Positions 11,811-44,674 of a stretch of 64,000 bases of DNA are shown in pieces (position 1 is the first letter of the stretch; each line of letters starts with the position of its first letter). The DNA lies in NCBI GenBank assembly GCA_030427205.1, contig JAUHXC010000011.1, positions 44,016 through 108,015 of the forward strand. Reading direction: 5' to 3'. Made by a program: the position numbers and the translations under genes. The notes beneath the pieces are model-generated. The model worked only from the letters and a program-made list of their open reading frames with translations. It was not told the origin of the DNA and did not search any database. This DNA comes from a bacterium. Its GTDB lineage: Bacteria > Myxococcota_A > Bradymonadia > UBA7976 > UBA1532.

Positions 11811-14800
11811 TCAGCCGCGCAGGCCGGCGTCCACCTGCCGCAAGAGCGCCAGCAGCTCGTCGACCTTGGCCCCGATGGCCTGAGCGTCGTTGAGGTTGTC
11901 GGCGCTGGCCCGCACCAGCGGCACCAGCGTGCGCTCGATGAGCTGGACCTGCTGGGCCAGCAGCTCTTCGACCCCCGGCGGCGGCTGGTTGAGCACCTCG
12001 ACCTCGACCTTGGGCTGCTGCATGGTCTGCAGCGCCTTGCTCAGCTCGGTCAGCGCCGTCGACAGCCCCGGATCGGCCGCGCTGGGGATCGGCGGCGGCT
12101 GGCCCGGCTTGCGGCCCAGCGGCGGCAGGTTGCCCAGCGGGCTCGCCGCGAGCTTCTTCGCCGACGCGGCCTGCTCGGCGGCGGCCTCGATGGCCCCCTT
12201 GATGCCGTCGAGTCGCCCGCCGAGCGCGTCGAGCTTCGTGGTGGTCTCCGTGCTCTGCCCCAGCGCGCTGCGCAGCCCGCCCAGGCTCTGGGCGATCGAG
12301 GCCAGCGCCTTCTCGGTGCCCGGCTGCGCGCCGCTCCTGAGCGCCTCGCCGATGGCGTCCAGCCGCCCGCCGAGCCCGGCGATGGCCTGCTCGGTCTGCC
12401 CCGCGCCGGTCAACGCGGCGCGGATGGCCCCCAGCTCTTCGCCCAGCCCGCCCAGCGTGCCGGTGACCCGGGCCACCGGGTCGTCCTCGTCGCCGCCCAT
12501 CGTCTGGATGCGCTTGAAGCTGCGGCAGACCTCGGCGTAGCGCGCCTTCTGCTCGGGGGTCATGCGCCCGCGCAGCTGCGCCAGCTTGAGCAGGTTGTTC
12601 TCCGCGCCGCTCGTCAGCGTCTGCGACTCGCCGGTGTAGTGGTCGTCGATGAGCGACTCCACCTCGTCGGGCGTCATCGCCGCCATGACCTTCTCGGCCA
12701 TCTTGTTCATGTTGCGGTAGCTGCCCTGCAGCTTGAACGACGGCTCGGTGCGAAAAGCGTCGTCGGTCGCGGCGCTGAGGATGTACTGCATGTTGACCCG
12801 CAGCACGACCTCCTGGATCTGGGTCAAACGCTGCAATACGGCGGTGATCTCGCCGATCTCGACCCCCGAGTACCCGTGCTTGAGGTCGGTGGTCGGGATC
12901 TCCTCGCCCCGGCTCATGCGGATGAGCTTGTAGACGTCGTCCTGGCTGCGGGTGGCCAGCGGCGCGAGCACCGGGTTCGAGGTGAGCGCGTTCTCGATGT
13001 ACGACAGCGAGAAGACGTCTTCCTTGCCGTCGAGGATGTCGCCCAGGTTGTAGGTGTCGGCGCGGTTGGCCAGCATGTCGGGGATGACGAACTTGGCCCC
13101 CGTCTCGGTGTACGGGTTGCCGGCCATGATCACGCAGAACTTCTTGCCCCGCATGTCGTAGGTGCGCGTGCGCCCGCGCCAGACGCCCTCGATCTTGCGC
13201 TGCCCGTCACACAGCGAGATGAACTTCTGCAAGAACTCGGGATCGAGGTGCTGCACGTCGTCGAGATAGAGCATGACGTTATTGCCCATCTCGAAGCCCA
13301 GGTTGACCTTCTCGACCTCCTGGCGCGCGGTCGCGTTGGGCGCCTCGCCCGGATCGAGGCTGACGACGCCGTGGCCCAGCGAGGGCCCGTTGACCTTGAC
13401 GAAGACCAGCCCCAGCCGATTGGCGACGTACTCCATCAGGGTCGTCTTGCCGTAACCGGGCGGCGAGATGAGCAGCAACAGGCCCATCAGATCGGTGCGT
13501 TTGTCGTTGCCCGCCGCGCCCATCTGCTTGGCGAGGTTGTCGCCGATGAGGTGCAGGTAGACGTCGTTGATGAGCTTGTTGCGCACGAAGCTGCTCATCA
13601 CCCGCGGCTGGAACTCGTTGAGCCGCAGCCGCCGCTTGCCGTCCTCGATGACCGCGGCCCGCTGCTTGCGATAGGCCCGATAGCCGGGCACCGTCACCTC
13701 GATGAAGCGGGTCAGGCGGTCGAGGAAGGTATCCAGCGCCAGCTGCATGACCTGATCGCTGATGCGCGGGTGCTGCCCCAACAGCCCGCGGACCTCGGTG
13801 CGGGTCACCGCGCTGCTCGTCTCGCGGTCGAGCTTGGGCCCGCCGATGATCACCGCCGCTTCGAGCACCAGCGGGTCTTCGGGGTCGAGGGCGGTGCCCT
13901 CCACCAGCGCCTCGATCCAGGCCCGCGCCACCGCGATGCGCCCGGCCAGGTCGCCGTCGAGCGCGCGCAGGTCGGCCTCGAAGTCGCGCCGGGTATTGGT
14001 CTCGTCGAGGTGCTGCCACAGCCGCTCGGTCAGCTCGACCGCCTCGCGGCTGGTGGTGAAGCGCGGCGGCTCGGCGCCCAGCTCTTCGACCAGATAGCGC
14101 CCCGCGAGCGTCCCGTGCCCCGCCAGCGTCGGCAGGCCGGCCAGCTCGGCGAAGGCGCGGATCTCGCCGGCCAGCTCTTCGGCCAGCGCGCCCATGGCCG
14201 CCGGCGTGCGCCCGAAGCTCTGCCGCAGCCGACCCAGGTTCATGCCTTTACGCTGCCAGCGGCCCTTGGCCTCGCGGTCGCCGTATGACCCCCAGAAGAG
14301 CGCCGCCACCGCCCGCGGGGCCGGCCCGAAGCGCAAGAGCCCGGCCGCGGTGTGCATGTGCAAGAGCTTCTCGAGGATGAGCGCCGCGTCGCTGTCGTGC
14401 AGCCCGCGCTCGTAGCCCTCCTCGTAGCGCTCGCGGGCGATCTCCGAGACCAGCTCGAGCAGCCCGCCGTCCTCCCGCTGAGCGTCGAGCAGGCGTTGAA
14501 TGGACAGCCCGCCGTCGCCGCGCTCGGCGGCGAAGAGCAGCGTCGCAGCCAGATACTCGGCGCGGTAGACCTGCTTGTTCTCCGAGACGACGGTCTGCGA
14601 CCAGTAGGGCTTGCTGGCGAGGAAGCCCTCGTCTTCGACCGGCTCGTAGAAGTCGGTGCCGGTCAGGTGCAGCGCCATGCCCTCGCCGCGGGGCACCATC
14701 GTCAGCTCGAGGGTCTGGGTATTGACGTTGAACAGGTGCCGCCCGAAGCGGATGAGGTCGGCGCCCTCCTCGAAGAGCTCGAGCTTGTCGCGCAGCCCGC

Positions 14801-17339
14801 GCAGGGCGTCCTGGCGGGCCTGCTTGAGCCGCCCGGCCAGCTCGTCGCCGCGCACCCCGTCGCCCAGCTTGGTCAGCTGCTCGGAGAACGCGCGCAGCTT
14901 CTGCACCATGCCGTCGGCGGCGAAGTAGGCGTTGAGCGCGTCTTCGTCCTTGAAGTTGCGGGTGCGCCGGGCGACGCCCTCGAGGATGCGGTCGGCGGCG
15001 CCCATGATGTTCTGCACCCGCCGGTTGCGCTCGTCGAGCAGCGTCTGCTTGCGGGTATTGAACGCCTCGTAGACCTCGTCCCGCTTGGCGGCCAGGTCGC
15101 CGAGGAACTCGTCGAACTCGCTGAAGCGGGCCTCGAGCTCTTCGAGCAGCACCATCAGCCGCGAGAGCTCTTCGTCGCAGCGCTCGGGGCTGTCGCACAT
15201 CGCCAGCGCGCTCTGCACGCTCTGGCCGAAGAGCTTGAACTGCGCCCCGAACTCGGCGCGGCCCTCTCTGCCGAGCAACGACTTGCGCCGCCCTTCGACG
15301 GTGGCCCGCACCCGGTTGAGGTGGCCGAAGACCTCGCCGATGCCCTCCAGGATGGTCGTGCGCTGGGTGGCGTCGTCAATCTGAAGGCCCGCGATGACCT
15401 CGGTCAGCAGATCGAGGCCCTCGCTCAGCTCGACCAGACGGGCGCGCAGCGGCTCGATCTCGGTGACCTTCTCGACCTTGCCCGAGTCGGCGAGCACCTT
15501 CTCCAGGTCGCGCTTGAGCGGCCCGAGCGCCTCGTCGCGCAGCAGGAACTGCACGCAGTCGCGGGTCAGTGAGTCGAACTGCTCGACCGCCTCGGCTTCG
15601 AGGGCGTCGAGCCGGGCCTGGTCGATGAAGCGCACCTCGCGGATCGTGATCAGGTGCCCCCGCTGCTGCCGCAGCGCCGTCATCGCCTTCATGTAGCCGT
15701 CGACCGAGTTGAGCGTATGGCTGCGCACCTCGGTGAGGATCTGCTGCTGGTTGGCCTCGGTCTCGGCCAGCGCGTCGGCCGCCTGCTTGCGCAGGATGAG
15801 CACCTTCTCGAACTCGTCGACGATGAGCTCGGCGGTGCGGGCGAGCGTATCGAGGGCCGCCTTGAAGGCGACCTCGGCGTGGTCGAGCCAGTAGTAGCTG
15901 TCCCGCATGCGGGTGATGGCGGCGATCAGGTCTTCGTAGGTCCGCCGATCGGGCTCGGCGCGGCCGATGAGCCGGTCGATCGAGAAGGCGTCGCTGATGC
16001 CGCGCACCAGCTCGGCGTTGCCCACCTTCGAGAGGAAGGAGCCGTCGGTCGGCGCCGCCGCGGCGAACTCGGCCGAGACGAAGGGCGTGCGCCAGACCTG
16101 CATCGGGTGCACCCGGCTCGGCTCGATGGCGGCCTTGAAGACCACCATGCGCCCGTCTTCGAACAGGCTGTAGCCGTTGCAGGTGATCGGGCTCTGCACC
16201 GCCTTGCGGATGAGGTTGTACGGCAAGAGCACGTACTCCCCCTCCTCGCGGCGGTGGAAGATGTAGAGCACGTCCTCGCCGTTGGGCGACTTGATGACCC
16301 GCTTGAAGCGCAGCCCGTCGAGCGGGGTGTCGAAGACCTTGTAGTCGCCGCTCTCGAGGTAGTAGCCGCCGGGGAAGATGATCCCGTGGTCTTCGGGCAG
16401 CTGCACGCAGGCCCGGCCGATGGCGTCGATGCGCACCACGCTGCGGGTGCGGGTATTGAACACCAGGTAGCGATAGTCGGGCTCGCGATAGGGCTTGATC
16501 CGCAGCAGGATCAGCGGCCCCAGCTCGGCGTAGTGGATCTCGCCGTCGTCGAGGGTCTGGTTGGCGTCCTCGACGGGCTCGCGATAGATGCCCTGCCCGT
16601 CTTCGGTATTGTCTTCGATCTTGACGGTGAGGTCGCCGCCGACGGTCTCGACGAAGACCTTGTCGAGGATGTTGACGTGCGGATGGCGCCCGGCCACCTG
16701 CTGCTCACGGCCGGTCGGGGTCCACTCGAAGTCGTGGCTGGCGGGGAAGGTATGGTCCCGATCGCCGCGGTTGTCGATGTAGGTCAGCCCGCCGCCCGGG
16801 TCGACCCGCCAGCGGCAGACCTTGATGTCGTCGGCGCTCGCGCCGATGCGAAAGACCGACATCAAGCGGGTGTCGGTGCTGCGCAGCAGCATCAGCTCGC
16901 AGTCGCGGTAGTAGCGGAAGAGGTCGCCGAAGTCCTTTCGGAAGTCGGTGTTCTGCAAGAAGCCCACGTCGCCGTCGGGCACCCGGCTGAAGTCGTAGCC
17001 GTCCGCCGCCTCTTCGAAGCGATACAGCCCGAAGACGTCCTCGACCTTGGTCTCCTGCTTGAGCCCCAGCGTCAGCTGATAGCCCACCAGCAGCTGGCCG
17101 CCGACGTTGACCACGTCGCGGGTGACGCAGTTGTGCTCGGTGCGCACCCGGCCGTTGGCCAGCACCGCCAGCTCGGTGCCGCCGAAGGTCTCTTTGCGGC
17201 GCTCGTTGAGGGCCTCGGCCTTCTCGCGCAGGGTCTTGCCCTGCGCCTCGAGCCGGCGGCGGATGACGGCGTAGTTGCCCCCGGCGAGCGCGGCGTCTTC
17301 GCCGGATTCGAGGGCGACGTCCTGTGTCTCTTCGGCCAT
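11811..17339 (-). CDS. giant (1842 aa) AAA+ ATPase-domain protein of unknown function, encoded downstream of nfeD-flotillin
   Basis: ATG 17339 has GGGGGAGAG 7 nt upstream. The N-terminal ~450 aa are beta-rich, followed by long coiled-coil segments. The AAA+ core is near residues 1350-1500: Walker A 'LLLISPPGYGKTTLMEY', Walker B 'VMLYLDDVQHL', sensor-1-like 'FCVIMAGNPYTE' (AAA_5/dynein-like). The C-terminus is coiled-coil/Gly-Leu repeat-rich. It lies 92 nt downstream of the flotillin gene. Confidence 0.85.
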   Translation of the reverse strand: MAEETQDVALESGEDAALAGGNYAVIRRRLEAQGKTLREKAEALNERRKETFGGTELAVLANGRVRTEHNCVTRDVVNVGGQLLVGYQLTLGLKQETKVEDVFGLYRFEEAADGYDFSRVPDGDVGFLQNTDFRKDFGDLFRYYRDCELMLLRSTDTRLMSVFRIGASADDIKVCRWRVDPGGGLTYIDNRGDRDHTFPASHDFEWTPTGREQQVAGRHPHVNILDKVFVETVGGDLTVKIEDNTEDGQGIYREPVEDANQTLDDGEIHYAELGPLILLRIKPYREPDYRYLVFNTRTRSVVRIDAIGRACVQLPEDHGIIFPGGYYLESGDYKVFDTPLDGLRFKRVIKSPNGEDVLYIFHRREEGEYVLLPYNLIRKAVQSPITCNGYSLFEDGRMVVFKAAIEPSRVHPMQVWRTPFVSAEFAAAAPTDGSFLSKVGNAELVRGISDAFSIDRLIGRAEPDRRTYEDLIAAITRMRDSYYWLDHAEVAFKAALDTLARTAELIVDEFEKVLILRKQAADALAETEANQQQILTEVRSHTLNSVDGYMKAMTALRQQRGHLITIREVRFIDQARLDALEAEAVEQFDSLTRDCVQFLLRDEALGPLKRDLEKVLADSGKVEKVTEIEPLRARLVELSEGLDLLTEVIAGLQIDDATQRTTILEGIGEVFGHLNRVRATVEGRRKSLLGREGRAEFGAQFKLFGQSVQSALAMCDSPERCDEELSRLMVLLEELEARFSEFDEFLGDLAAKRDEVYEAFNTRKQTLLDERNRRVQNIMGAADRILEGVARRTRNFKDEDALNAYFAADGMVQKLRAFSEQLTKLGDGVRGDELAGRLKQARQDALRGLRDKLELFEEGADLIRFGRHLFNVNTQTLELTMVPRGEGMALHLTGTDFYEPVEDEGFLASKPYWSQTVVSENKQVYRAEYLAATLLFAAERGDGGLSIQRLLDAQREDGGLLELVSEIARERYEEGYERGLHDSDAALILEKLLHMHTAAGLLRFGPAPRAVAALFWGSYGDREAKGRWQRKGMNLGRLRQSFGRTPAAMGALAEELAGEIRAFAELAGLPTLAGHGTLAGRYLVEELGAEPPRFTTSREAVELTERLWQHLDETNTRRDFEADLRALDGDLAGRIAVARAWIEALVEGTALDPEDPLVLEAAVIIGGPKLDRETSSAVTRTEVRGLLGQHPRISDQVMQLALDTFLDRLTRFIEVTVPGYRAYRKQRAAVIEDGKRRLRLNEFQPRVMSSFVRNKLINDVYLHLIGDNLAKQMGAAGNDKRTDLMGLLLLISPPGYGKTTLMEYVANRLGLVFVKVNGPSLGHGVVSLDPGEAPNATARQEVEKVNLGFEMGNNVMLYLDDVQHLDPEFLQKFISLCDGQRKIEGVWRGRTRTYDMRGKKFCVIMAGNPYTETGAKFVIPDMLANRADTYNLGDILDGKEDVFSLSYIENALTSNPVLAPLATRSQDDVYKLIRMSRGEEIPTTDLKHGYSGVEIGEITAVLQRLTQIQEVVLRVNMQYILSAATDDAFRTEPSFKLQGSYRNMNKMAEKVMAAMTPDEVESLIDDHYTGESQTLTSGAENNLLKLAQLRGRMTPEQKARYAEVCRSFKRIQTMGGDEDDPVARVTGTLGGLGEELGAIRAALTGAGQTEQAIAGLGGRLDAIGEALRSGAQPGTEKALASIAQSLGGLRSALGQSTETTTKLDALGGRLDGIKGAIEAAAEQAASAKKLAASPLGNLPPLGRKPGQPPPIPSAADPGLSTALTELSKALQTMQQPKVEVEVLNQPPPGVEELLAQQVQLIERTLVPLVRASADNLNDAQAIGAKVDELLALLRQVDAGLRG

Positions 17340-17431
17340 CGGGCACTCTCCCCCGGGCGGAGCCGGGCGGGCGGCTGGGGTCGCGGTCGCCCGGGCCCGC
17401 GCGGCGGGTCGGGCCCACTGTCAGGCGGCGA

Positions 17432-19618
17432 TCAGGCCTGCAGCCCCAGCTTGCGGGCCTGAGCGGCGAGCTGCTCGAGCTTCTGCTTCGTCTCGCCGTC
17501 GGCCTCGGTGGCCAGCCGCGCGATGAGGCCGGCGATGCCCAGGTTCTTGACGTTCTCGGCGGTCAGCCGGCCGGCGAGGATGTCCTTGACGTCGTCGGGC
17601 AGGCTGCGCTGACCCGAGAGGTAGGGCTGCATCGTCGTGCTGGCCACGTCCGAGCTCTCCACCAGCCCGTCGAGGCTCTTGCCCAGGCTGACGGCGTTGA
17701 CGAACTTGTCGAAGAACTGCCCGTCGCCGCCGACGATGTTGATGTCGGCCTGCTGGAACGCCGCCGCCAGCACCCGCGCCTGATGCTCGGCGATCTGCAC
17801 CTGCGCGCCCACCTTCTCCAGCGCCACCTGCTTCTGCATCTCAAGCTGCAGGCGGAACTCCTCGTGCTCGCGGCCGACCCCGTCGAGGGCCTTCATCGCC
17901 GCGGCCTTCTCGGCCAGACCCGAGGCCTCGGCGGCCAGCTTCTCCTTGACCGCGGTGGCCTCGGCCAGCCCGCGCTTCTCGATCGCGGCGGCTTCGGCCT
18001 CGCGCACCCGCGCCTGAGCCAGCCCCTTCTCCTCTTCGCCGGCGGCCTCGGCCAGCTTCTTCGACTTGATGACGTCGGCCTCGGCCTGGCCCTCCTGCAG
18101 CGTCGCCTGGGCCATCGCCTGGCGCACCTTGACCTTGGCCAGCCCCTTCTTCTCCTCGCCCTGGGCCTCGGCGGCCATCTTGTCGAGGGTCACCGTCGCG
18201 TGGGCCTTGCCCTGCTTCTCGATCGCGGCGGCCTCGGCCTCCTTGACCCGCACCTGGGCCAGCCCCGAGGCGGCCTCCTCGGCCTGAACGCCCTCGGCCA
18301 TGCGCATCTTGGCCCGGGCCTGCTTGTCGCTGGCCTCCAGGTCGGCCTCGGCGATGGTCAGCTTCTCCCGGGCCTGGAACTTGGCCACCTCTTCCTGGGC
18401 CTCGGCGGCCTTGATGTTCTTGACGAGCGCCTCCTGGGCGTCGGCCTCGGCGGCGACGATCTTGACCTTCTTCTGCCGCTCGGCCTCGGCGTGGGCCCGC
18501 AGATCCTTGATGCGCTCCTCTTCCTCGGCGACCGTCTTCTCCACCGCGATGCGCTGGCGGATGACGTCGGCGATCTCCTTGCGCTGCTTCTCGAGCTCCT
18601 TCTCCTTGTCGATGCGCTGCAGCTCGACCTCACGCTCGCGGCCGATCTCCTCGACGTCGGCGGCCTTCTTGACCCGCACCGACTCGACGGCCACCTCGCG
18701 CTCGCGGGCCTTCATGGCGACCTCGATCGCCCGCAGCTTGCCCTGCTCGCCCTTCGAGACCTCCTCCTCGGCCTTCTGGCGGATGAGCGCGGTCTTCTTC
18801 TCCTCCTCGGCCTGGACCCGCAGAGCCTCGTTGCTCTCGCGGCTCTGGGCCATCGCGATCTCCTTCTCCTTCTTGGCGACCGCGTCGGCCCGCTGCTGGT
18901 CGAAGCGGTAGATCGCCTCGTCGGCCTTGAGGTCCTGCGAGCCCATCTCCATCCGCTCCTTCTGGCGGACTTCGTTGGTCTTGATGTTCTGACCGGCGGT
19001 CAGCTCGGTGATCTTGCGGATACCCTGGGCGTCGAGGATGTTCTGCTTGTCGAGGTGCTCGATGGGCGTCTGCTCGAGGAAGTCGATCGCGGCGTCATCG
19101 AGCACGTAGCCGTTGAGGTCCTTGCCGATGACCTCGATGATCTGATCCTTGAAGTCGTCCCGCTGGGTGTAGAGCTGCTCGAACTCGAGCCGCTTGCCGA
19201 CCGTCTTCAAGGCCTCGGAGAACTTGGCGACGAAGAGCTCTTCGAGCGTCTTCTGGTCGCTGGCGCGGGCGCAGCCGATGCTCTGGGCCACCTTGAGCAC
19301 GTCGTCGGCGGTCTTGTTGACCCGCACGAAGAAGGTCACCTTGATGTCGGCCCGCACGTTGTCTTTGCAGATGAGACCCTCGTGGGCCCGCCGCTCGAGC
19401 TCGATGGTCTTCACCGAGATGTCCATCGTCTCGCAGCGATGGATGATCGGGTAGACGATGCCGCCGGTGAAGGTCACCTCCGGGTCCTGCTTCATCTTGT
19501 TGATGATGAGCGCCTTGCCCTGATCCACCTTGCGGTAGAACTTCGAGATGATGACCAGCACCCCGATGATGAACAGGATGACCAGCGCGGCGACGATGAG
19601 CATCACTTGAAGCGGCAT
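17432..19618 (-). CDS. flotillin-family SPFH/Band-7 protein (FloT/YqiK-like)
   Basis: 728 aa. N-terminal TM 'MPLQVMLIVAALVILFIIGVLVIISKFY' is followed by an SPFH domain. A ~400-aa Ala/Glu/Lys-rich flotillin repeat region ('EAEAAAIEKQGKA...') and a C-terminal domain follow. Confidence 0.9.
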   Translation of the reverse strand: MPLQVMLIVAALVILFIIGVLVIISKFYRKVDQGKALIINKMKQDPEVTFTGGIVYPIIHRCETMDISVKTIELERRAHEGLICKDNVRADIKVTFFVRVNKTADDVLKVAQSIGCARASDQKTLEELFVAKFSEALKTVGKRLEFEQLYTQRDDFKDQIIEVIGKDLNGYVLDDAAIDFLEQTPIEHLDKQNILDAQGIRKITELTAGQNIKTNEVRQKERMEMGSQDLKADEAIYRFDQQRADAVAKKEKEIAMAQSRESNEALRVQAEEEKKTALIRQKAEEEVSKGEQGKLRAIEVAMKAREREVAVESVRVKKAADVEEIGREREVELQRIDKEKELEKQRKEIADVIRQRIAVEKTVAEEEERIKDLRAHAEAERQKKVKIVAAEADAQEALVKNIKAAEAQEEVAKFQAREKLTIAEADLEASDKQARAKMRMAEGVQAEEAASGLAQVRVKEAEAAAIEKQGKAHATVTLDKMAAEAQGEEKKGLAKVKVRQAMAQATLQEGQAEADVIKSKKLAEAAGEEEKGLAQARVREAEAAAIEKRGLAEATAVKEKLAAEASGLAEKAAAMKALDGVGREHEEFRLQLEMQKQVALEKVGAQVQIAEHQARVLAAAFQQADINIVGGDGQFFDKFVNAVSLGKSLDGLVESSDVASTTMQPYLSGQRSLPDDVKDILAGRLTAENVKNLGIAGLIARLATEADGETKQKLEQLAAQARKLGLQA

Positions 19619-19680
19619 CGCGATTTCCCCCTCGGCCGGCGCGCGAGCCGGCCGTCTGCAGTCGGATCTCTACAAACGAA

Positions 19681-20577
19681 TCAAACGTCGAGCGGCTCGA
19701 CCACGTAGGCCTCCCGCTCCCGGTCGAAGTCGATGACCAGCACCGTGTCGCCGCGGCCGATGCCCTTCTCGGGCTTGGCGCGCACCTCGATGCGCAGGAA
19801 GTCGCCGCCCACCTTGCAGTCGGCCAGCCCGAAGCGCTCGGTGACCTTGCCGGTGGTGACCACCGCGGTATTGCCCACCACGTCGGCCCGGGTGCGGCCG
19901 GTGCTGCCCACGAAGACCGGCGCCAGCGGCCGGATGATGATCGAGGTGAACGGCACGGCGACCACGAAGGCGCCCAGGCCCACCAGCGGCACCAGCGCGA
20001 TGTTCGGCAGCGTGCCGCCGAGGTAGTACATGCCCAGCATCGACAGCGCCCAGCCGGTCAGCACGATCGAGCTGATGACCACCGTCATCGGCGCCGAGCG
20101 CAGCTTGAGCGCGCTGAGCAGCTGCGCCAGCCCGCTGCCGCCAGCCAGCTTGCCCGCCAGGCCATCGCCGTCGGCGGCCCCGTCTGCGATGCCATCGGCG
20201 GCCCCATCGGCCAGCCCGTCCGCCGCCCCGTCGGCCAGCCCGTCGGCCGCCCCGTCGAAGGCGCCGTCCAGCGCCTCGGCGGCCCCATCGGCCACGCCGT
20301 CCGCCGCGCCGTCCAGGGCTCCGTCGAGCGCGCCGTCCAGCGCCTCGCCGGCCCCTTCGAAGGCGCCGTCGGCCAACCCCTCGACCGCCCCTTCGGCCAA
20401 GGCCTCGGCGCCGCCCTCGGTGCCGCCCTCCAGCAGCCCGTCGGCGTCGCCGATGTCGAGCATGTCGATGTCGAGGGCGCCGAGCACGACGAACAGCCAG
20501 TACACCACGATCACCACCAGCAGGATGGTGTAGACCACCGTGGGGAAGGCAAGGGCAGCGGCGAGCAGCTCGGGCAT
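19681..20577 (-). CDS. NfeD/YqiJ-like membrane protein with C-terminal OB-fold
   Basis: ATG 20577 ('MPELLAAALAFPTVVYTILLVVIVVYWLF...'). Three or four TMs. An unusual (A/L)DG(A/L) acidic repeat linker is encoded by degenerate 12-bp tandem repeats. The C-terminal beta-barrel 'VVGNTAVVTTGKVTERFGLADCKVGGDFLRIEVRA...GDTVLVIDFD' is an NfeD C-terminal domain. The gene is 62 nt upstream of the flotillin gene on the same strand. Confidence 0.85.
   Translation of the reverse strand: MPELLAAALAFPTVVYTILLVVIVVYWLFVVLGALDIDMLDIGDADGLLEGGTEGGAEALAEGAVEGLADGAFEGAGEALDGALDGALDGAADGVADGAAEALDGAFDGAADGLADGAADGLADGAADGIADGAADGDGLAGKLAGGSGLAQLLSALKLRSAPMTVVISSIVLTGWALSMLGMYYLGGTLPNIALVPLVGLGAFVVAVPFTSIIIRPLAPVFVGSTGRTRADVVGNTAVVTTGKVTERFGLADCKVGGDFLRIEVRAKPEKGIGRGDTVLVIDFDREREAYVVEPLDV
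20150..20420 (-). repeat. degenerate 12-bp tandem repeat encoding the (A/L)DG(A/V) acidic linker of the NfeD-like protein
   Basis: DNA reads 'gccgtcggccagcccgtcggccgccccgtcgaaggcgccgtccag...' with a 12-nt periodicity. The translated repeat is 'DGALDGALDGAADGVADGAAEALDGAFDGAADGLADGAADGLADGAADGIADGAADGDG'. Confidence 0.6.
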
Positions 20578-20703
20578 GGGCTCCGCGGGTATCGTTCGGG
20601 TCGTCGGCGGATCGAGACTGAACCTGTCGGTCACGCACGTCAAGGGGCCGTCTACCCCGCTCGATGTGGTCCCCGCCGAGACGGTGCGCTAGGGTGCGTT
20701 GCG

Positions 20704-21933
20704 GTGGCTGTATCGGCCACGCGGGAGGTCGTGGTGTCCGAGGAAGAGCGCGAAGAGAGCGAGCCGCCGCGGCTCCCGATCTCGCAGATCATGCTGAAGG
20801 ACTTTTTGTCTTATGGGCCGGGCGAGTACACCTTCGACCTGAAGGCGCTCAACGTGCTCATCGGCCCGAATGGGTCGGGCAAGACCAACTTGATCGAGGC
20901 GTTCGAGGTGCTGCGGGCCGTGCCGAAGGACGTGCTGCGGCCGTTTCGGCGCGGCGGGGGGTTCGGCCGATGGGTCTTCAACGGCGCATCCGGTGAGGCT
21001 GTCCCGGCACTCGGTTTGCTCACTGCTGGCGGTACGTCGTCGCTTCGCTATCACATCGAGCTGACCGAGTCCGAGTGGGGGAGCGCGCAGGTTCGCAGCG
21101 AGTCTGTACTGCCCGGCCAGCCCTACTCGACGCCCGACGAGTTCTTCTTGGAGCGCGAGCTGTATGGGCCGGCCAGGATCATGGGCCGGGGGTGGGGCGG
21201 GGACAACGAGCGCGACGTCAAAGTGGACGACGCAACGTCGGTCCTGGCTCAGGTCAAAGACGAAATGGCCTACCCCCAGCTGGCCCGGATCAGCAGACTC
21301 ATGGAGTCGATCCAGATCTTCCGGTCATGGGCGCTGGGTCCCAATGCACCAACCCGCGGCGCTTGCCCGTCCGACGTACGTCAGGACCGGCTGGAGGAAG
21401 ACTTCTCCAACCTGCCGATGCGCCTTCAGGCTCTGCGACGCATGCCTGCCTTGAAACGGCGACTCCAGGCGTTGCTGAGCGATCTGGCACCCGGCTTCGA
21501 CGACTTCGAGGTCTTCCCCGAAGGTGGGACGCTGCACCTCTACCTGACCGAAGGCGACAACAACATCTCGGCCCAGCGGCTCTCCGACGGCACGTTGCGC
21601 TATCTGTGCCTGCTCGCCATCCTGCTCGACCCACCCGAGGGCGGGGTGATCATCATCGAAGAGCCCGAGTTGGGGCTGCATCCCGACATGCTCGGCACCC
21701 TGCGCGATCTGCTCGTCGAGGCCAGCGAGACCGCCCAGATCATCATCACGACCCACTCGACGATGCTGGTCGACGCCTTCACCGAGCACCCCGAGGCCAT
21801 CGTCGTCTGCGAGAAGCCCGAGGGCAGCACCGAGCTGCGGCGTCTGACCCGCGAGGAGGTCGACGCGTGGCGTGAATTCGGCTCGCTGGGTCAGCTCTGG
21901 ATCTCGGGCCAGTTCGGGGGCACGCGCTGGTGA
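20704..21933 (+). CDS. ABC/SMC-like AAA ATPase (AAA_21/OLD-AbiLi-like)
   Basis: Walker A 'LIGPNGSGKTNLIEAF'. Signature/Q-loop-like 'LSDGTLRYLCLLAILL'. Walker B 'GVIIIEEPELGLHPDM'. H-loop 'IIITTHS'. Start uncertain: ATG 20704, or GTG at 20734 after GGGAGG. The stop overlaps the start of the next gene (GTGA). Confidence 0.8.
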   Translation: MAVSATREVVVSEEEREESEPPRLPISQIMLKDFLSYGPGEYTFDLKALNVLIGPNGSGKTNLIEAFEVLRAVPKDVLRPFRRGGGFGRWVFNGASGEAVPALGLLTAGGTSSLRYHIELTESEWGSAQVRSESVLPGQPYSTPDEFFLERELYGPARIMGRGWGGDNERDVKVDDATSVLAQVKDEMAYPQLARISRLMESIQIFRSWALGPNAPTRGACPSDVRQDRLEEDFSNLPMRLQALRRMPALKRRLQALLSDLAPGFDDFEVFPEGGTLHLYLTEGDNNISAQRLSDGTLRYLCLLAILLDPPEGGVIIIEEPELGLHPDMLGTLRDLLVEASETAQIIITTHSTMLVDAFTEHPEAIVVCEKPEGSTELRRLTREEVDAWREFGSLGQLWISGQFGGTRW

Positions 21934-22532
21934 AGCGCCGAAAGAGCAAGCTGTACGTCGAGGGCGGCGGCGACAGGGATCTCGACCGCGCGTGTCGAGA
22001 GGCTTTCGCCAAGCTCTTCCGATCGGCGGGCATCCGCCGTCCACCGGGCGTCGTCCCGTGCGGACCGCGCAGTCTGGCCTTCCGCCGGTTCTGCGTGGCC
22101 CTGACGCGAGGCGACCACGATCCCTGGCTGCTCGTCGACGCGGAGAGCCCGATCGCGGAGGGGGTGACGCCCTGGAGGCACGTCGCCGCCCGCGAGGAAG
22201 ACAAGTGGACCTGCCCCGCGCACGCCACCGATGAGCACCTGCACTTCATGTCGGTCGTCATGGAGACGTGGCTGGTCGCCGATCCCGACGCTCTCGAGAA
22301 GGTATTCGGTGCCGCGCTCGATCGCGGTCGGTTGCCGAAGAACCCGGCGAGCCTCGAAGGGCGCCCCAGAGATCGGGTCGAAGACGATCTGAAGCGAGCC
22401 ACGGCAGGCACGAAGAGCGGCCCTTACGGCAAAGGCACTCACAGCTTCAAGGTGCTGGCCCATGTCGATCCGACCAAGCTCGACGCGCTGCCTTGGGCCC
22501 GCCGATTCCTCGACGCAATGCGCGGCGGCTGA
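21930..22532 (+). CDS. DUF4276/RloB-like TOPRIM-like protein (partner of the ATPase)
   Basis: 200 aa with a GTG start overlapping the ATPase stop. N-terminal 'KLYVEGGGDRDLD' and later 'LLVDAESP' fit the TOPRIM-like Glu plus DxD pattern of DUF4276/RloB proteins that pair with AAA_21 ATPases. Confidence 0.6.
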   Translation: MKRRKSKLYVEGGGDRDLDRACREAFAKLFRSAGIRRPPGVVPCGPRSLAFRRFCVALTRGDHDPWLLVDAESPIAEGVTPWRHVAAREEDKWTCPAHATDEHLHFMSVVMETWLVADPDALEKVFGAALDRGRLPKNPASLEGRPRDRVEDDLKRATAGTKSGPYGKGTHSFKVLAHVDPTKLDALPWARRFLDAMRGG

Positions 22533-22602
22533 CGTCGACCTGCGCCGCATCCTGTCGCCGGCTCGTGTATCCTCTGCCGCCGAGCAACCCCCGGAGCCCG
22601 TG

Positions 22603-23652
22603 ATGTCCCTGCGAAACGCCCTGCAAGCGCGCCTCGACGCCGACGCTGCCGGCCTGTGCCGGCTGGCCGCCGACTTCGTGCTCGACCGCCCCGTGGCCGC
22701 CTTCATCAACCCCGCGCGGGTCGACTTCTGGCTGGACCACGCCTTCGACGAGGGCGCGGCCCACGCCGCCGTCGAGGCCCACGTGCAGGGCTTCGTCGAG
22801 CGGGAGCAGGCCCGAGCCAAAGCCCGCGGCGATACGGTGCGCGACTGGGTCTCCGCCGAAGCCCAGGCCGAGCTGCGGGCGTTCGCCGCGCGGCCGGTGG
22901 TCTTCGAGCGCGAGATGATCAAACGCTGGGTCGATCAGGACGCGGTGCGCTCGATCCTGCAGTCGATCGTGCGCGAGACGCTCGACCGCTTCGTCGACAC
23001 CGTCAAGCCGGGCGGCAGCGGCGGCGGGCTCGTCGGCGCGGTCGGCCGGCGCACGATCGGCTTCGCCAGCCGCGCCGGGCGGGGGCTGCTCGGCGGCCTC
23101 GGCGGGCAGTTCGAAGACCTGCTGCGCGGCGCGGTGAGCAGCTTCGTCGGCGGCTCGATGGGGCTGATGGTCGACCGGATGGTGGACATCCTCATGCAGC
23201 CCGAGACCCAGCGGCAGCTCGGCCGGCTGCGGCTGTCGACCTATGAGCGGGCGATGGCCAGCGAGACGGTGGAGATCTTCGACCGGGCGGCCGACGAGCC
23301 GGCCCTCGAGGATCTGCTCGAGGCGCTGCCCGGGCTCATCGCCCACAACCTCGACCGCCCCGAGGTGCGCGAGATCCTGCGGGCCGAGGTCACCCGCTGG
23401 GTCGCGGCCGAAGGCGAGCGGCCGATCCGCAGCTTCCTGCCCGCCGAGCACGTCGAGGCGCTGCGCGACGAGCTGGCGGCGCTGGTCGAGCCGATGGTGG
23501 TCGCGTTCGTGGCCACCGACAGCTTCGCGCTGTGGGCCGACGGCCTCGAAGGCTGGGCCGAGCAGACGACGTCGTCGTTCGCGGTGCCCGAGGACGACGA
23601 GCCGGACGACGAGCCGGACGAGCCGGACGACGAGCCCGAGCCGGGCGCCTGA
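22603..23652 (+). CDS. hypothetical protein (349 aa), first gene of a coupled three-gene cassette
   Basis: ATG 22603 has GGAG 6 nt upstream ('MSLRNALQARLDADAAG...'). Balanced composition. The acidic C-terminus 'EDDEPDDEPDEPDDEPEPGA' is encoded by short repeats. The gene ends 3 nt before the next gene. The ORF track's 47 upstream codons lack an RBS. Confidence 0.6.
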   Translation: MSLRNALQARLDADAAGLCRLAADFVLDRPVAAFINPARVDFWLDHAFDEGAAHAAVEAHVQGFVEREQARAKARGDTVRDWVSAEAQAELRAFAARPVVFEREMIKRWVDQDAVRSILQSIVRETLDRFVDTVKPGGSGGGLVGAVGRRTIGFASRAGRGLLGGLGGQFEDLLRGAVSSFVGGSMGLMVDRMVDILMQPETQRQLGRLRLSTYERAMASETVEIFDRAADEPALEDLLEALPGLIAHNLDRPEVREILRAEVTRWVAAEGERPIRSFLPAEHVEALRDELAALVEPMVVAFVATDSFALWADGLEGWAEQTTSSFAVPEDDEPDDEPDEPDDEPEPGA

Positions 23653-23655
23653 TCC

Positions 23656-24348
23656 ATGAGCCTGCCCGCCCCCGATCCGACCCCGCTCGCCGGGCGGGGG
23701 CTGTGTCTGGTGCTCGCGCCGGCCGATCGGCAGACGCTCGCGCCGCTGCTCGAGCTGGTGGGCAGCACGCAGGTCGCTCTGCGTATCCTGGCGCCGGGGC
23801 CCGATGACGACTGGCTGGCGCAGGTCTCCGAGCCCATCGACGGGGCCGCGGTGCAGCGGGTGGTGCTGTTCTGGAGCGCCGCCGCCGCCGGCCTGCCGCG
23901 CATCGAGCGCCTGCGGGGCGAGACCGCCTCGCTGACCGGCGATCGGCTGGCGGTGCTGGCCCTCGATCGCACGCCCATCCCGCCGATGCTGGCCGGCGCC
24001 GCTGCGCCGCTGCTCGACCGCTGCCTGCGCGCGCTCTCGGAGCACGTCGCCGCCGAGTCGGTGCCGCACGCGGTGGTCGCCCGGCTGACGTCGCTCGAGC
24101 GCATCCGCCGGATCGGCGCCGTCGCGGCGACGGTCAGCGGGCTGCTGCTGGCGGCGGTCCTGCTGCTGTGGCGGGTGCCGAGCCCGCTGGCCGATCCGAC
24201 CGATCGGCTGGTGATGCGGGTGGTGCTGCTGATCATGATTCCCGGTGTGGCGGGGGTCTTCGCTATGCTGTGGGCCCGGCTCGATCGCCGGTTCCTGGCC
24301 CACCGGGCCGGCAGCTACCTGATCGACCGCGCGTTGGAGGAGCGATGA
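23656..24348 (+). CDS. hypothetical membrane protein (230 aa)
   Basis: Starts 4 nt after the previous stop. Two C-terminal TMs: 'IGAVAATVSGLLLAAVLLLW' and 'VVLLIMIPGVAGVFAMLWA'. The stop overlaps the ATG of the Uma2 gene (ATGA). Confidence 0.6.
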   Translation: MSLPAPDPTPLAGRGLCLVLAPADRQTLAPLLELVGSTQVALRILAPGPDDDWLAQVSEPIDGAAVQRVVLFWSAAAAGLPRIERLRGETASLTGDRLAVLALDRTPIPPMLAGAAAPLLDRCLRALSEHVAAESVPHAVVARLTSLERIRRIGAVAATVSGLLLAAVLLLWRVPSPLADPTDRLVMRVVLLIMIPGVAGVFAMLWARLDRRFLAHRAGSYLIDRALEER

Positions 24349-25016
24349 TCGACGATCGCCAAGGTATTGACACCGAACATTCGAGCAGTCATGGTCCCGG
24401 CATGTTGCACGCCGAATCCCCATCGCAGCCGCCCGCGCCCGTCACCTGGGAAGAGTATATCGCTCTGCCCGAGGACGACCTGCGCGAGCTGATCGACGGG
24501 GTCCTGGTCGAGGTGGAAGTGCCGACGAAGTTGCACGAGTGGATCGTCGCCGAGCTGTTGTTCGCCTTGAAGCTGTGGAGTCGGGACCACGGCGGTATCG
24601 TCTTCGCCTCGGGCTACAAGGTCCGGATCGACCGCAGCCCGGCCCGAGGCAGCGCGTTCATGCCGGACATCCAGCTCTTTCGCTCTCCGGAGACGATCGC
24701 GGGGCCCGAGCACGATCAGGGGCTGTCCGACGGCGCGCCGGATCTGGTGGTGGAGATCATCTCGCCGAGCAGCGGGCGGCACGACCGGGTGACCAAGTTC
24801 AACGGCTACGCCGCGATCGCGTGCCCCGAGTACTGGTTGATCGACCCCGACAGCCGCTTGCTCGAGCAGTTCGTGCTGGAAGACGGGCACTATCGCCTCG
24901 CCGCCCGGCCAGCGGAGGACGCGCTCTTCGAGCCGAAGACATTCCCCGGGCTCTCGATCCCGCTGAAGTCCTTGTGGACCGTTCCGCGGAGCAGCACGCC
25001 GCCTGCCGCGGATTGA
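24345..25016 (+). CDS. Uma2-family (DUF820) PD-(D/E)xK-like endonuclease
   Basis: GGAGG lies 4 nt upstream of ATG 24345. An alternative start at 24402 gives 'MLHAESPSQPPAPVTWEEYIALPED', typical of Uma2 N-termini. Conserved 'PDLVVEIISPSS...D...K' and 'YAAIACPEYWLIDP' motifs are present. Confidence 0.8.
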   Translation: MIDDRQGIDTEHSSSHGPGMLHAESPSQPPAPVTWEEYIALPEDDLRELIDGVLVEVEVPTKLHEWIVAELLFALKLWSRDHGGIVFASGYKVRIDRSPARGSAFMPDIQLFRSPETIAGPEHDQGLSDGAPDLVVEIISPSSGRHDRVTKFNGYAAIACPEYWLIDPDSRLLEQFVLEDGHYRLAARPAEDALFEPKTFPGLSIPLKSLWTVPRSSTPPAAD

Positions 25017-25191
25017 CACCGGGGGCCACTCCGAGCCCCGCCCGGGCCGCCTCGACCGCGGCGGCGCCCACGCCCTCGCCCATTGACGTATCGGCCCGCC
25101 CGCGGCGCTGTAGCGGCCCTGGCGGGCATCCAGACGCCCCTTCGCAGCCCCGATTCGGGTAGATTCCGTCCAGCGCGGCCCCGGAGGTCTC

Positions 25192-40913: not shown

Positions 40914-41080
40914 GCCCGCCGCGCCGTCCACCCGCGGCCCCTCCGTTCGACCCCCCTTCCAACTTCGTCCGCGCCCGACGACGTCTCGTCGACCAGCGCC
41001 CGCTCGTCGGCGACCCGCACCAAAAATCCTGCAGGCCCCCCGGGTGACCCACTACAGTGCGGTCTCTCGCGGAGGTCGTC

Positions 41081-44000
41081 ATGCCGTCACCCGACCGTCA
41101 TCTCTTGCCCGTGCTGGGGCTGCTGCTGCTCTGCGGCTGTGATCCGGGCGGCGGCGCGTCGCCGGAGACCGACGGCGCCGCGGTCGATCGCGGCGTCGCG
41201 GTGGACGTCGGCGCGGCGGACGCCGGCCCAGCGGACGTCGGCGCAGAGGACATCGGCGCAGAGGACGTCGGCGCAGAGGACGCCGGCACCGAGGACGTGG
41301 GGCCGGAGGACGCTGCGCGCGACATGGCCGGGCCGGACATGACGCCGCTCGACATGGCGCCGCTCGACATGGCGCCGCTCGACATGAGCCCGCCGGACGC
41401 GGCGCCCGCCCCGCGCAGCGCGCCGATCATCTCCGAGTTCATGGCCAGCAACCGCGATACGCTGCTCGACGAGACCGGCGGCAGCCCCGACTGGATCGAG
41501 CTGCACAACCCGGGCAATACGCCCTACGACCTCGACGGCCATCACCTCACCGACGACCTCGACGCGCCCACCCGCTGGCGGTTTCCGGCCGTCGAGCTGC
41601 CGCCGCAGGGTTATCTGATCGTCTTCGCCTCGGGGGACGACCGCCGCGACCCCGACGCCCCGCTGCACACCGACTTCCGCCTGGACGCCGACGGCGAGAC
41701 CGTCGCGCTGACCGGCCCCGCCGGCGATGTGATCCACGCCATCGAGGACTGGCCGGGCCAGGCGACGGGCGTCAGCTATGGCTACCCGATGCGGATCGGC
41801 CGGACGGCGCTGCTCGACACCGGCAGCCCGGCGCGGGCCTGGATCGGGCCCGATCCCGAAGGGGCCGAGCGGCCCGACTTCGACGATGGCGACTGGCTGC
41901 CGGTGACCCAGGGGGCGGGCGTGGTCGCCCGCGGTCCGGGCGAGCCGCGGCCCGCGGGTATCTACGATCTGGGCCCGCAGCTGGGGCTGGCCGACGTCTT
42001 CTGGCTGCGGATTCCGTTCGCGGTGCCCGATGGCGACGACGGCGCCGACCTCGAGCTGGAGCTGACCTACGACGACGGCCTCACCGCGTGGGTCGACGGC
42101 GAGCTGGCCCATCGGGACAACGACGTGCTGGGCGCGACCACCGATCGGCCGGACTCGCGGGCGCTGGGGCGGGTGCGCATCCCGCTGCCCGAGCGGGCGG
42201 CGGGGCCGGGCGCGATCACGCTGCGCGCGGTGGACGCGGCGGCGGCCGACGGGCTGTTCTTCGCCGCGGCCCGGGTGGTGCGGCCGGGCGTCGTCATCGC
42301 CGACGCGGCGCGCCACCTGCCGACGCCGACGCCGGGCGCGCCGAACCTGATCGACGCCCGCGGGCTGGGGCCGATCGTGGTCGACCTCGATCGGCATCAG
42401 CCGCTGCTCGAAGGCCAGCCGCTGCGCATCGGCGCCCGGGTGATCGAGACCGACGCGCCGGTGGCCGCCGTGCGGCTGCATCACCGGGTGATGTTCGGCC
42501 CGGAGCAGACGACCGAGATGCTGCGGGTGGACGACGGGCGCTGGCTGGCCGAGCTGGACACCGCCCGCGTCGCGCCGGGGCAGATGATCCGCTGGCGGGT
42601 CGAGGCGGTCGATCTCGAGGGGCGCACGGCCCGCGAGCCGCCTTTCCTCGATCCGCTCGACAGCGAAGAGTACGTCGGCACGGTGGTGCATCAGCGCATC
42701 GAGACCAACCTGCCGGTCTACCACTGGTTCGTCGAAGATCTGGCGGCGGCGGGCACCGAGGCGGGCACCCGCGGGGTGCTGTGGTACGACGGCGAGCTGT
42801 ACGACAACATCGAGATCGACCTGCACGGGCAGGCGACGACGCGGTTTCCCAAGAAGAGCTACAACTTCGACTTCAATCGCGATCACCGCTTCCGGGTGCG
42901 CGACGACCTCGAGCGGGTCAAGGACTTCGACCTGCTGACCAACTACGCCGACAAGTCGAAGATGCGAAATACCTTGTCGTACGGCATGTTCCGGGACGCG
43001 GGCCACGCGTATCACCTGGTTTTTCCGGTGCGGCTGCACCTCAACGGCGAGTTCTTCGCGGTCTACGAGTTCGTCGAGGATCCCGACGAGCGCTGGCTGC
43101 GGCGCATGGGCTACCCCGAGCCATTGGGCTCGGTCTACAAGTGCTACGATACGCTGGCGAGCGTGAACGGCAGCGAGAAGAAGACCTTCGAGGAGGACGG
43201 CACCGCCGACCTGCAGGCGCTCATCGACGGGCTGGGGCAGCCGGGGGACGCGCGGCGGCGCTTCATCTACGACCACGTCGACCTGGCGGGCATGGCCAAC
43301 TTCGCGGCGATGCTGTTCATCACCTCGGGCCGCGACTGCTGCACCAAGAACTACTACGCCTATCGCGACCACTCGACCGACATGTGGTGGTACCTGCCGT
43401 GGGACATCGACCTGAGCCTGGGGCGCAACTGGACCGGCAGCTACTTCGACGACCGGATGTTCCCCGAGAACCCGCTGTACGAGGGGCAGGAGAACCGGCT
43501 GATCGGGTCGCTCTACGCGCTGCCGGAGTTCCTCGAGATGTACCACCGGCGGGTGCGCACGCTGGCCGACGAGCAGATGCAGAGCAGCGCGACGCCGTAT
43601 GAAGAGCGCTACCTGGAGAACGAGGCCGATCGCTGGCAGGCGATCATCGGCGCCGACGCGGCGCTGGACAACGCGGCGTGGGACACCTGGGGGCAGCCGC
43701 AGACGATGGCCGAGGCGGTCGAGATCATGAAGACCGAGTGGCTGCCCGGCCGGCGGGCCTATATCTACGGGCAGCTCGCGCAGCGGGACGGCGGCGGGCC
43801 GGTGACGACGCTGATCGACGGGGCGACGGGGGCCACCCGCGGGCGCTGGTTCGTGCCGGTGGACGACGGGCTGGGCGAGGCGTGGACCGCGCCGGACTTC
43901 AATGACGGCGGCTGGGACGCGGGGCCCCTGGGCATCGGCTACGAGAACGGCAATGGCTACCAGGCGCTCATCGCCAGCGAGGTGCGGCCGGCGGCGGTGA

Positions 44001-44670
44001 ACCCGGCGGCGACCACCGTGTTGGTGCGGATCGAGTTCGAACTCGACGCGCCGGCCGATCTGCCGGTGCTGCGCATGAAGTACGACGACGGCTACGTGGC
44101 GTACATCGACGGGGTCGAGGTGGCCCGGCGCAACCTGTCCCCGGGGCCGGTGAGCTGGAACGACAGCGCGGCGGTGCACGACGACGGGGCCGCGGTGCGC
44201 TTCGAAGATCTGCCGCTCGACGGGCTGGTGCTCGCGCCGGGCCGGCACGTGCTGGCCATCCGGCTGGTCAACGCGGGCGCCGACTCGAGCGACTTCCTGC
44301 TGCAGCCGGCGCTGGTCGACGGCCTGCCGGCGGTGGGCGACGGGCCGCTGCCGCCAGCGCAACCGGCGGAGGTGGACGTAACGTTCGAAGCGGACGAGGC
44401 GGCCGGCGCCGAGAGCTTCGTGGCGCTGCGCAATAGCGAGGCCTTCGCGGTGGACATCTCGGGCTGGCGGCTCTCGGGGCGCGGCATCGAGCACGTCTTC
44501 CGCGGCGGCACGGTCATCCCGGCGGGCGGGCAGCTGTACGTGGTGGCCGATGTGCCGGCGTTCCGGGCGCGCGCGCAGGGGCCGCGCGGCGGGCAGGGGC
44601 TCTTCCTGCAGGGCAACTGGCGCGGCGAGCTGGTGGAGGGTCCGCTGGACGGGCTCGCGCTGGAGGCGCC

Positions 44671-44674
<4 letters not shown>
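41081..44674 (+). CDS. CotH-family kinase-like protein flanked by two lamin-tail (LTD) domains; lipoprotein
   Basis: GGAGG is 5 nt upstream of ATG 41081. Lipobox 'LLLLCGC'. N-terminal low-complexity region with tandem repeats. LTD 1: 'IISEFMASN...PDWIELHNPGNTPYDLDGHHLTDD...PPQGYLIVFASGD'. CotH core: 'VYHWFVEDLAAAGTEAG...YNFDFNRDHRF...DLLTNYADKSKMRNTLSYGMF...YKCYDTLASVNG...KNYYAYRDHSTDMWWYLPWDID'. LTD 2: 'FVALRNSEAFAVDISGWRLSG...GGQLYVVAD'. Confidence 0.85.
41200..41400 (+). repeat. tandem 18-bp (GAEDxG) and 15-bp (PLDMA) repeats in the 5' end of the CotH gene
   Basis: 'gacgtcggcgcagaggac' units repeat from about 41200 to 41310. 'gacatggcgccgctc' occurs four times from about 41336 to 41395. 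The translations are 'DVGAADAGPADVGAEDIGAEDVGAEDAGTEDVGPED' and 'MTPLDMAPLDMAPLDMSPPD'. Confidence 0.7.

Follow-up and report, generated by a model that had tools for sequence, protein, structure and literature searches.

A HEC-01-type ABC ATPase and TOPRIM gene pair forms a stand-alone accessory cassette and a probable anti-phage module in a Bradymonadia genome

In nucleases of the OLD family, a conserved acidic motif of the TOPRIM domain binds two Mg2+ ions, the domain cleaves DNA, and the ABC ATPase is regulatory (PMC10568477). A single polypeptide carries both ATPase and TOPRIM in OLD proteins of classes 1 and 2 and in GajA of Gabija, which works together with the helicase GajB, whereas they are split between two proteins in PARIS, AbiL and MADS. 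In PARIS, the ATPase AriA detects an anti-restriction protein of the phage and switches on AriB, a separate TOPRIM protein that cleaves transfer RNA (tRNA) (summarised in PMC12839542), and Mad4 of MADS has been reported to be a homologue of DUF4276 (PMC12065111). Dyads of an OLD-type ABC ATPase and a TOPRIM protein have also been reported embedded in BREX and Hma (PMC12839542; bioRxiv 10.1101/2024.01.29.577857). HEC-01 was defined as Hma-embedded candidate 01 (Payne et al., bioRxiv 10.1101/2024.01.29.577857). Here we analyze a pair of adjacent genes, A and B, within a stretch of 64,000 nucleotides of a bacterium of the class Bradymonadia (contig JAUHXC010000011.1, positions 44,016 to 108,015; hereafter the window). 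The pair belongs to the broad group of OLD-like ABC ATPases paired with TOPRIM nucleases and, judging from its profile matches, is almost certainly a member of HEC-01. This family is already catalogued by PADLOC as a candidate defence family, and the pair adds one more member to it. We propose that the two genes probably constitute a stand-alone, horizontally mobile anti-phage module in which the ATPase gates the TOPRIM nuclease.

Both proteins match the HEC-01 profiles of PADLOC end to end. Protein A matches HEC-01A (PDLC04177) with an E-value of 1.4e-120 (400.9 bits, model positions 5-393 of 393), and protein B matches HEC-01B (PDLC04201) with an E-value of 1.8e-58 (model positions 3-197 of 202). 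The layout agrees with that of HEC-01, with the ABC ATPase followed by a TOPRIM/DUF4276 protein that has an OLD-like metal site. In Pfam, A matches AAA_21 (5e-36) as well as AAA_15 and an SMC_N-type N-terminus, and B matches DUF4276 across the full model (2.8e-14). When all Pfam and PADLOC matches of B at E <= 1 are considered, DUF4276 and HEC-01B are the only ones. A preliminary description of the locus, made from the sequence alone, had pointed to a candidate defence module and had suggested checking it with these two resources. Both gave positive results and support the proposal, in which the anti-phage activity is predicted. The same description had called the pair OLD-, AbiL- or Septu-like. 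It does combine an OLD-like ABC ATPase with a TOPRIM protein, but it is neither AbiL, nor Septu, nor a fused OLD nuclease, and HEC-01 is the more precise label.

All other defence models are more distant. The PADLOC models of AriA, AbiLi, mad3, Old and PtuA-like proteins give far weaker and partial matches to A (7.5e-28 for AbiLi), and no NCBIfam model reaches its own cut-off on this protein: MAD3 (NF047739) scores 82.9 bits versus 420, PtuA (NF041760) 56.9 versus 500 and RecF (TIGR00611) 32.6 versus 172. MADS was rejected because of this low score of Mad3, a related ATPase, and because B has no mad4 match and the other mad genes are absent from the neighbours. The partner of the ATPase in AbiL is RloB; B has no match to RloB or AbiLii and A matches AbiLi only in part. 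Septu was rejected since B is a TOPRIM protein and not the HNH protein PtuB, and because of the low PtuA score of A. Fused OLD nucleases of classes 1 to 3 were rejected as well, because here ATPase and TOPRIM lie on two open reading frames (ORFs) with separate stop and start codons, a split that is kept in 79 of 80 related loci. The nuclease fold is nevertheless like that of OLD classes 1 and 2 and of GajA. Compared with OLD and GajA, the pair has no helicase and carries DxE instead of DxD. MANTIS, described in a preprint, has no TOPRIM component and is irrelevant here.

The window is rich in G+C (approximately 72%), and the true reading frames were picked out by the G+C content at each codon position. 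The two ORFs with overlapping stop and start codons reported in the preliminary description are both present and co-directional, overlapping by 4 nucleotides. The length first given to the ATPase, 409 residues, corresponds to the frame open from GTG 20704. The true start, however, is probably GTG 20734, which leaves 399 residues, because homology in 70 or more loci starts at residue 26 of the longer form, a GGGAGG lies 5 nucleotides upstream, the arrangement GGAGG-N5-GTGTCCGAGG is kept in a related contig (L083), and an independent gene call on record for the exact protein has 399 residues. The Walker A, Walker B and H-loop motifs quoted in the first description were all found, as were YVEGGGD and LLVDAE in B, and A has in addition an ABC signature (LSDGTLR) and a D-loop (LGLHPD) that this description did not name. 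All ABC motifs of A are invariant and every catalytic motif is intact; the C-terminus, GGxRW, is invariant too and overlaps the start codon of B. The best reading of the sequence is that A is a catalytically competent ABC ATPase, with a head of the Rad50/SMC type and without a long coiled coil.

Protein B carries two candidate TOPRIM motifs. E11, placed after the first strand, is invariant, and the second motif is acidic, D70-A-E72; each of the 39 homologues in the alignment has D-[A/S]-E at this place. Of the Glu/DxD pattern initially proposed, the second motif is D-x-E and not the canonical DxD. The residues invariant in the family are E11, G12, R23, G45, F54, L67-L68-V69-D70, E72, W82, D91, W93, M107, E112, W114, E143 and K168. 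The predicted structure (pLDDT, the predicted local distance difference test score, 95.6) is a three-layer alpha/beta fold built on a parallel core of four strands, as in OLD-type TOPRIM domains. Among its structural neighbours, significant matches are confined to TOPRIM nucleases of the OLD family that come from defence systems. A search of PDB sequences with the profile of B returned two insignificant matches (E > 0.3), so the link between B and TOPRIM comes from fold comparison only. To our knowledge, no structure of HEC-01 has been solved.

We scanned one genome per species for relatives of B and found at least 582 of them; all locus counts refer to the best 80 loci. The relatives occur in more than 10 phyla with a patchy distribution that includes Myxococcota, Alpha- and Gammaproteobacteria, Planctomycetota, Chloroflexota, Acidobacteriota, Chlorobi, Cyanobacteria, Latescibacterota and Deferribacteres, among others. 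An exhaustive profile search returned 2,468 clusters at 50% identity, nearly all of them stand-alone proteins of approximately 200 residues. An A homologue lies directly upstream of B on the same strand in 79 out of 80 loci, and the pairing of the two genes is therefore obligate. In 75 of these 79 loci, the stop codon of A and the start codon of B overlap by 4 or 7 nucleotides in the form (A/G)TGGT(A/G)A, which fixes the final Trp of A and the Met-Val of B. The identities of A and B homologues to the proteins of the window also co-vary (Spearman 0.55, p = 1e-7).

The genomic contexts of the related pairs differ in nearly all loci, and each flanking family is seen in 7 of the 80 at most. Among 103 immediate neighbours, we found PglX (n=6) and BrxC/PglY (n=3-5), and the rest are unrelated housekeeping genes. 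Most of the 80 loci are stand-alone and a minority is embedded in BREX, in agreement with the published dyads embedded in Hma and BREX that also occur alone. HEC-01 was discovered embedded in Hma, while the pair of the window lies in neither Hma, BREX nor a restriction-modification system and sits between unrelated chromosomal genes of a genome that, judged by its closest homologues and base composition, looks myxobacterial. The helicase and methylase of the Hma context are not found among the flanking genes; this context is not required for detection of the family.

In five Methylococcaceae loci (L021, L024, L028, L066 and L067, at ~8.8-10.6 kb in each locus), the pair is flanked by a PAPS-reductase-type (cysD-like) gene on one side and a GTP_EFTU (cysN-like) gene on the other, all on one strand, and appears to be inserted within a sulfate-activation operon. 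In three Sorangium loci (L009, L010 and L020), the pair lies directly downstream of the gene for a 1420-residue protein (for example, L010 4552-8814), in which a NERD nuclease-related domain is joined to two protein-kinase domains and to a domain resembling the C-terminal domain of the RNA-polymerase alpha subunit.

The comparison with the closest relatives of the window defines the pair as a cassette. In the closest one (L082), 45 unrelated bp take the place of exactly the leader, A and B, and the surrounding sequence is 91% identical at 16629-20649, 84% at 22544-24348 and 88.6% at 25148-26580. The pair is absent also from three further relatives (L084-L086), where the flank is 85% identical, and the fillers of the empty sites in L082 and L084 align poorly. 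By contrast, L083, with a flank 86% identical, has the pair at the same junctions. The pair is an accessory unit, and the occupied and empty sites show the two genes moving together as one self-contained unit of 1.9 kb. Their G+C content at third codon positions (GC3) is 0.855 for A and 0.821 for B, compared to 0.930 +/- 0.036 in the other genes of the window, and hence 2-3 standard deviations low. Between the window and L083, the ratio of nonsynonymous to synonymous substitution rates (dN/dS) is 0.36 for A and 0.26 for B, values indicating that both genes are under purifying selection. The synonymous rates themselves (0.77 for A and 1.08 for B) exceed those of the flanking genes (0.29-0.42). 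This excess is compatible with exchange of the cassette at the shared site, and a stronger codon bias of the flanks could be a partial cause of it.

We found no tRNA and no Rfam match near the cassette, which excludes a retron noncoding RNA or a tRNA integration site at the thresholds used. The leader has no sigma-70 consensus, and a scan for promoters and terminators returned nothing beyond the shuffled expectation, so that the promoter can only be presumed. Elsewhere in the window, ARAGORN calls a 91-nucleotide tRNA-Val(CAC) at 42187-42277 on the plus strand, inside an ORF with CotH and LTD domains (41057-44674). This call is probably a false positive because there is no Rfam tRNA match at the gathering threshold.

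By analogy with PARIS, Gabija and OLD, we tentatively propose how the pair might work, and hold the individual steps with less confidence than the defence role. A would dimerise or oligomerise through its ABC heads and hold B inactive. On infection, a cue in the form of a phage protein or of an abnormal nucleic-acid structure would alter the ATP-bound state of A. B would then be released or activated, and its acidic site (E11, D70, E72 and E112) would bind Mg2+ and cut nucleic acid. As a consequence, phage replication would be halted, possibly at the cost of the cell. We slightly favour DNA as the target of B, since in the structural comparison B comes closest to the DNA-cleaving domain of a class 2 OLD protein, with the helical part matched as well; tRNA, as in PARIS, is the main alternative.

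A role of the pair in defence is likely. Besides the family assignment, one HEC-01 representative was reported to protect Escherichia coli from one or more of the phages T4, T5 and T7 (bioRxiv 10.1101/2024.09.26.614923). Several observations weigh on the other side. The HEC-01 representative tested by the authors who defined the family gave no protection against any phage tried (bioRxiv 10.1101/2024.01.29.577857), and we found no defence phenotype on record for this clade or host. We infer the anti-phage phenotype of the pair from its relatives, and the complex between A and B, its trigger and its substrate are proposed by analogy. The DxE motif of B, a putative nuclease, departs from the canonical DxD. 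Plasmids, phages and IMG/VR contigs yielded no relatives of B and thus no vehicle of mobility; the ends of the cassette have no direct or inverted flanking repeats, target-site duplication or integrase. Finally, the pair stands alone outside any defence island, because no neighbour other than a Uma2-family gene, the only other candidate nearby, matches PADLOC and the rest of the window encodes ordinary functions.

The locus may also hold something more specific than another HEC-01 member, a possibility to which we give modest weight. Stand-alone DUF4276/HEC-01 pairs could represent a mechanistically distinct split-OLD class, with a minimal 200-residue TOPRIM protein bearing a DxE site, an ABC sensor without coiled coil, and a trigger or substrate other than those of PARIS, Gabija and P2 Old. 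In addition, defence cassettes may recurrently enter the gap that separates the DUF1449-family gene from the downstream operon, which would make it a hotspot in this myxobacterial lineage, as both the HEC-01 pair and the Uma2 gene vary there.

Less probable, and in our view unlikely, is that the pair is a PARIS-like variant, in which A would sense an anti-restriction protein (a DNA mimic of the Ocr type) and release B, which would cleave host tRNA and thereby cause abortive infection. PARIS (AriA/AriB, 'class 4' OLD-like) is split in two proteins like the pair described here. Its TOPRIM protein, however, is of the DUF4435 family, and B belongs to DUF4276 and is approximately 100 residues shorter than AriB. 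B matches neither the DUF4435 nor the AriB profile, for which PARIS itself was rejected, and no carriage by phages or satellites was found.

We consider it distinctly improbable that the two genes are a selfish addiction cassette of the toxin-antitoxin kind, or an orphaned and inert accessory of BREX, Hma or MADS that lacks its partners. In favour of this, Pfam gives AAA_21 the family label 'putative AbiEii toxin', the first test of HEC-01 was negative, BREX encloses some of the relatives, and the surroundings of the pair contain no methyltransferase or helicase. Yet most of the related loci are likewise stand-alone, neither gene is disrupted, their catalytic residues are invariant and their dN/dS is well under 1, and another HEC-01 representative was active on its own. 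A housekeeping DNA-repair pair, in the manner of the ABC ATPase RecF and the TOPRIM protein RecR or of SbcC/Rad50 and a nuclease, is hardly credible and was rejected because of presence/absence polymorphism at this very locus and the patchy distribution in unrelated contexts, to which the RecF score far below the cut-off, structural neighbours of B that are defence nucleases and not RecR, and an adjacent DUF3686 operon kept with or without the pair all add; the conserved housekeeping operon that the preliminary description had named as the opposite outcome is thus not what the 80 loci show.

The cassette read as a probable defence module provides a clean natural example for a family that is catalogued but mechanistically unsolved, and it leaves the current understanding of defence systems unchanged. 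Its interest is modest and lies in the invariant DxE variant, the conserved junction of overlapping codes and the clean empty site. The family-wide constraints relevant to experiment design are E11, D70-x-E72, E112, K168, the GGxRW tail of A and the obligate translational coupling. Given one negative and one positive HEC-01 test, the defined minimal cassette (Table 1) is a reasonable construct to clone.

Table 1. Coordinates of the cassette, its two genes and their conserved motifs in the window
Feature	Position	Strand	Details
Whole accessory cassette	20650..22543	+	1,894 bp: leader, both genes and 11 nt past the B stop
Cassette-specific leader, presumed promoter region	20650..20733	+	Inside the indel; Shine-Dalgarno-like GGGAGG at 20723-20728
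Gene A, HEC-01A-type ABC ATPase	20734..21933	+	399 aa (probable start); ORF open from GTG 20704, 409 aa
Walker A, GPNGSGKT	20863..20886	+	aa 54-61 of the 409-aa form
ABC signature, LSDGTLR	21580..21600	+	aa 293-299; L-S-D-G-x-L-R invariant
Walker B, IIIEEPE, then D-loop, LGLHPD	21649..21687	+	Walker B aa 316-322; E-E-P-E-L-G-L-H-P-D invariant
H-loop, TTHS	21748..21759	+	aa 349-352
GTGA stop/start overlap, A/B translational coupling	21930..21933	+	CGC TGG TGA versus GTG AAG
Gene B, HEC-01B/DUF4276 OLD-type TOPRIM nuclease (predicted)	21930..22532	+	200 aa
TOPRIM motif 1, YVEGGGD	21954..21974	+	aa 9-15; invariant E11 at the end of strand 1
TOPRIM motif 2, LLVDAE	22128..22145	+	aa 67-72; invariant D70 and E72 after strand 3; DxE variant of DxD
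METW	22260..22271	+	Invariant E112 and W114 after strand 4; candidate extra metal ligand, putative role
YGKGTHSF	22425..22448	+	C-terminal helical part; invariant K168, putative role

On one side of the pair lies a divergent three-gene operon (11811-20643, minus strand), encoding a 1842-residue protein with DUF3686, DUF7902 and AAA domains, a 728-residue protein with an N-terminus that looks like SPFH/flotillin and no Pfam match, and a 320-residue DUF1449 or 'glycine zipper' membrane protein. The operon has no PADLOC match. It is kept at 85-91% DNA identity in L082 and L084-L086 with or without the HEC-01 pair, and we therefore rejected a functional link between the two, also because no flanking family recurs across HEC-01 loci. 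A 12-nucleotide periodic repeat (at least 12 copies, 20171-20430) lies inside the minus-strand membrane-protein gene and encodes tetrapeptides of the (A/L)DGA type. Variation in the number of repeats is likely, since the homologues of the membrane protein are 250-350 residues long.

Downstream of the pair we found two proteins without family assignment, the Uma2 gene and a Cu-monooxygenase-like gene. The ORF called mechanically at 22462-23652 (plus strand) is over-extended: the comparison with L082, L083 and L084 places the true start near ATG 22604 (approximately 349 residues), and the gene therefore does not overlap with B. An TGTATCCTC element approximately 45 nucleotides 5' of this ATG is kept in three genomes. 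The Uma2 gene, a putative restriction endonuclease (24345-25016, plus strand), matches Pfam at 5.6e-33 and the PADLOC candidate PDC-S03 at 1.4e-27. Its likely ATG start overlaps the stop codon of the upstream gene as ATGA, and its GC3 (0.866) is low for the window. It represents a second presence/absence indel in comparison with L082, where 207 bp replace 24349-25147. Among the flanking genes there is no methylase or helicase, and no PADLOC match except Uma2.

Further downstream, the minus strand encodes a 1370-residue Cys- and Gly-rich repetitive protein (26591-30703) with 'C..GF.D.G.G.C.P' units and no Pfam match. It is followed by a 915-residue ORF (30819-33566, minus strand) for a bacterial protein that resembles the eukaryotic major vault protein, with matches to its domains MVP_shoulder (3e-18) and Vault_3 (8.7e-07).

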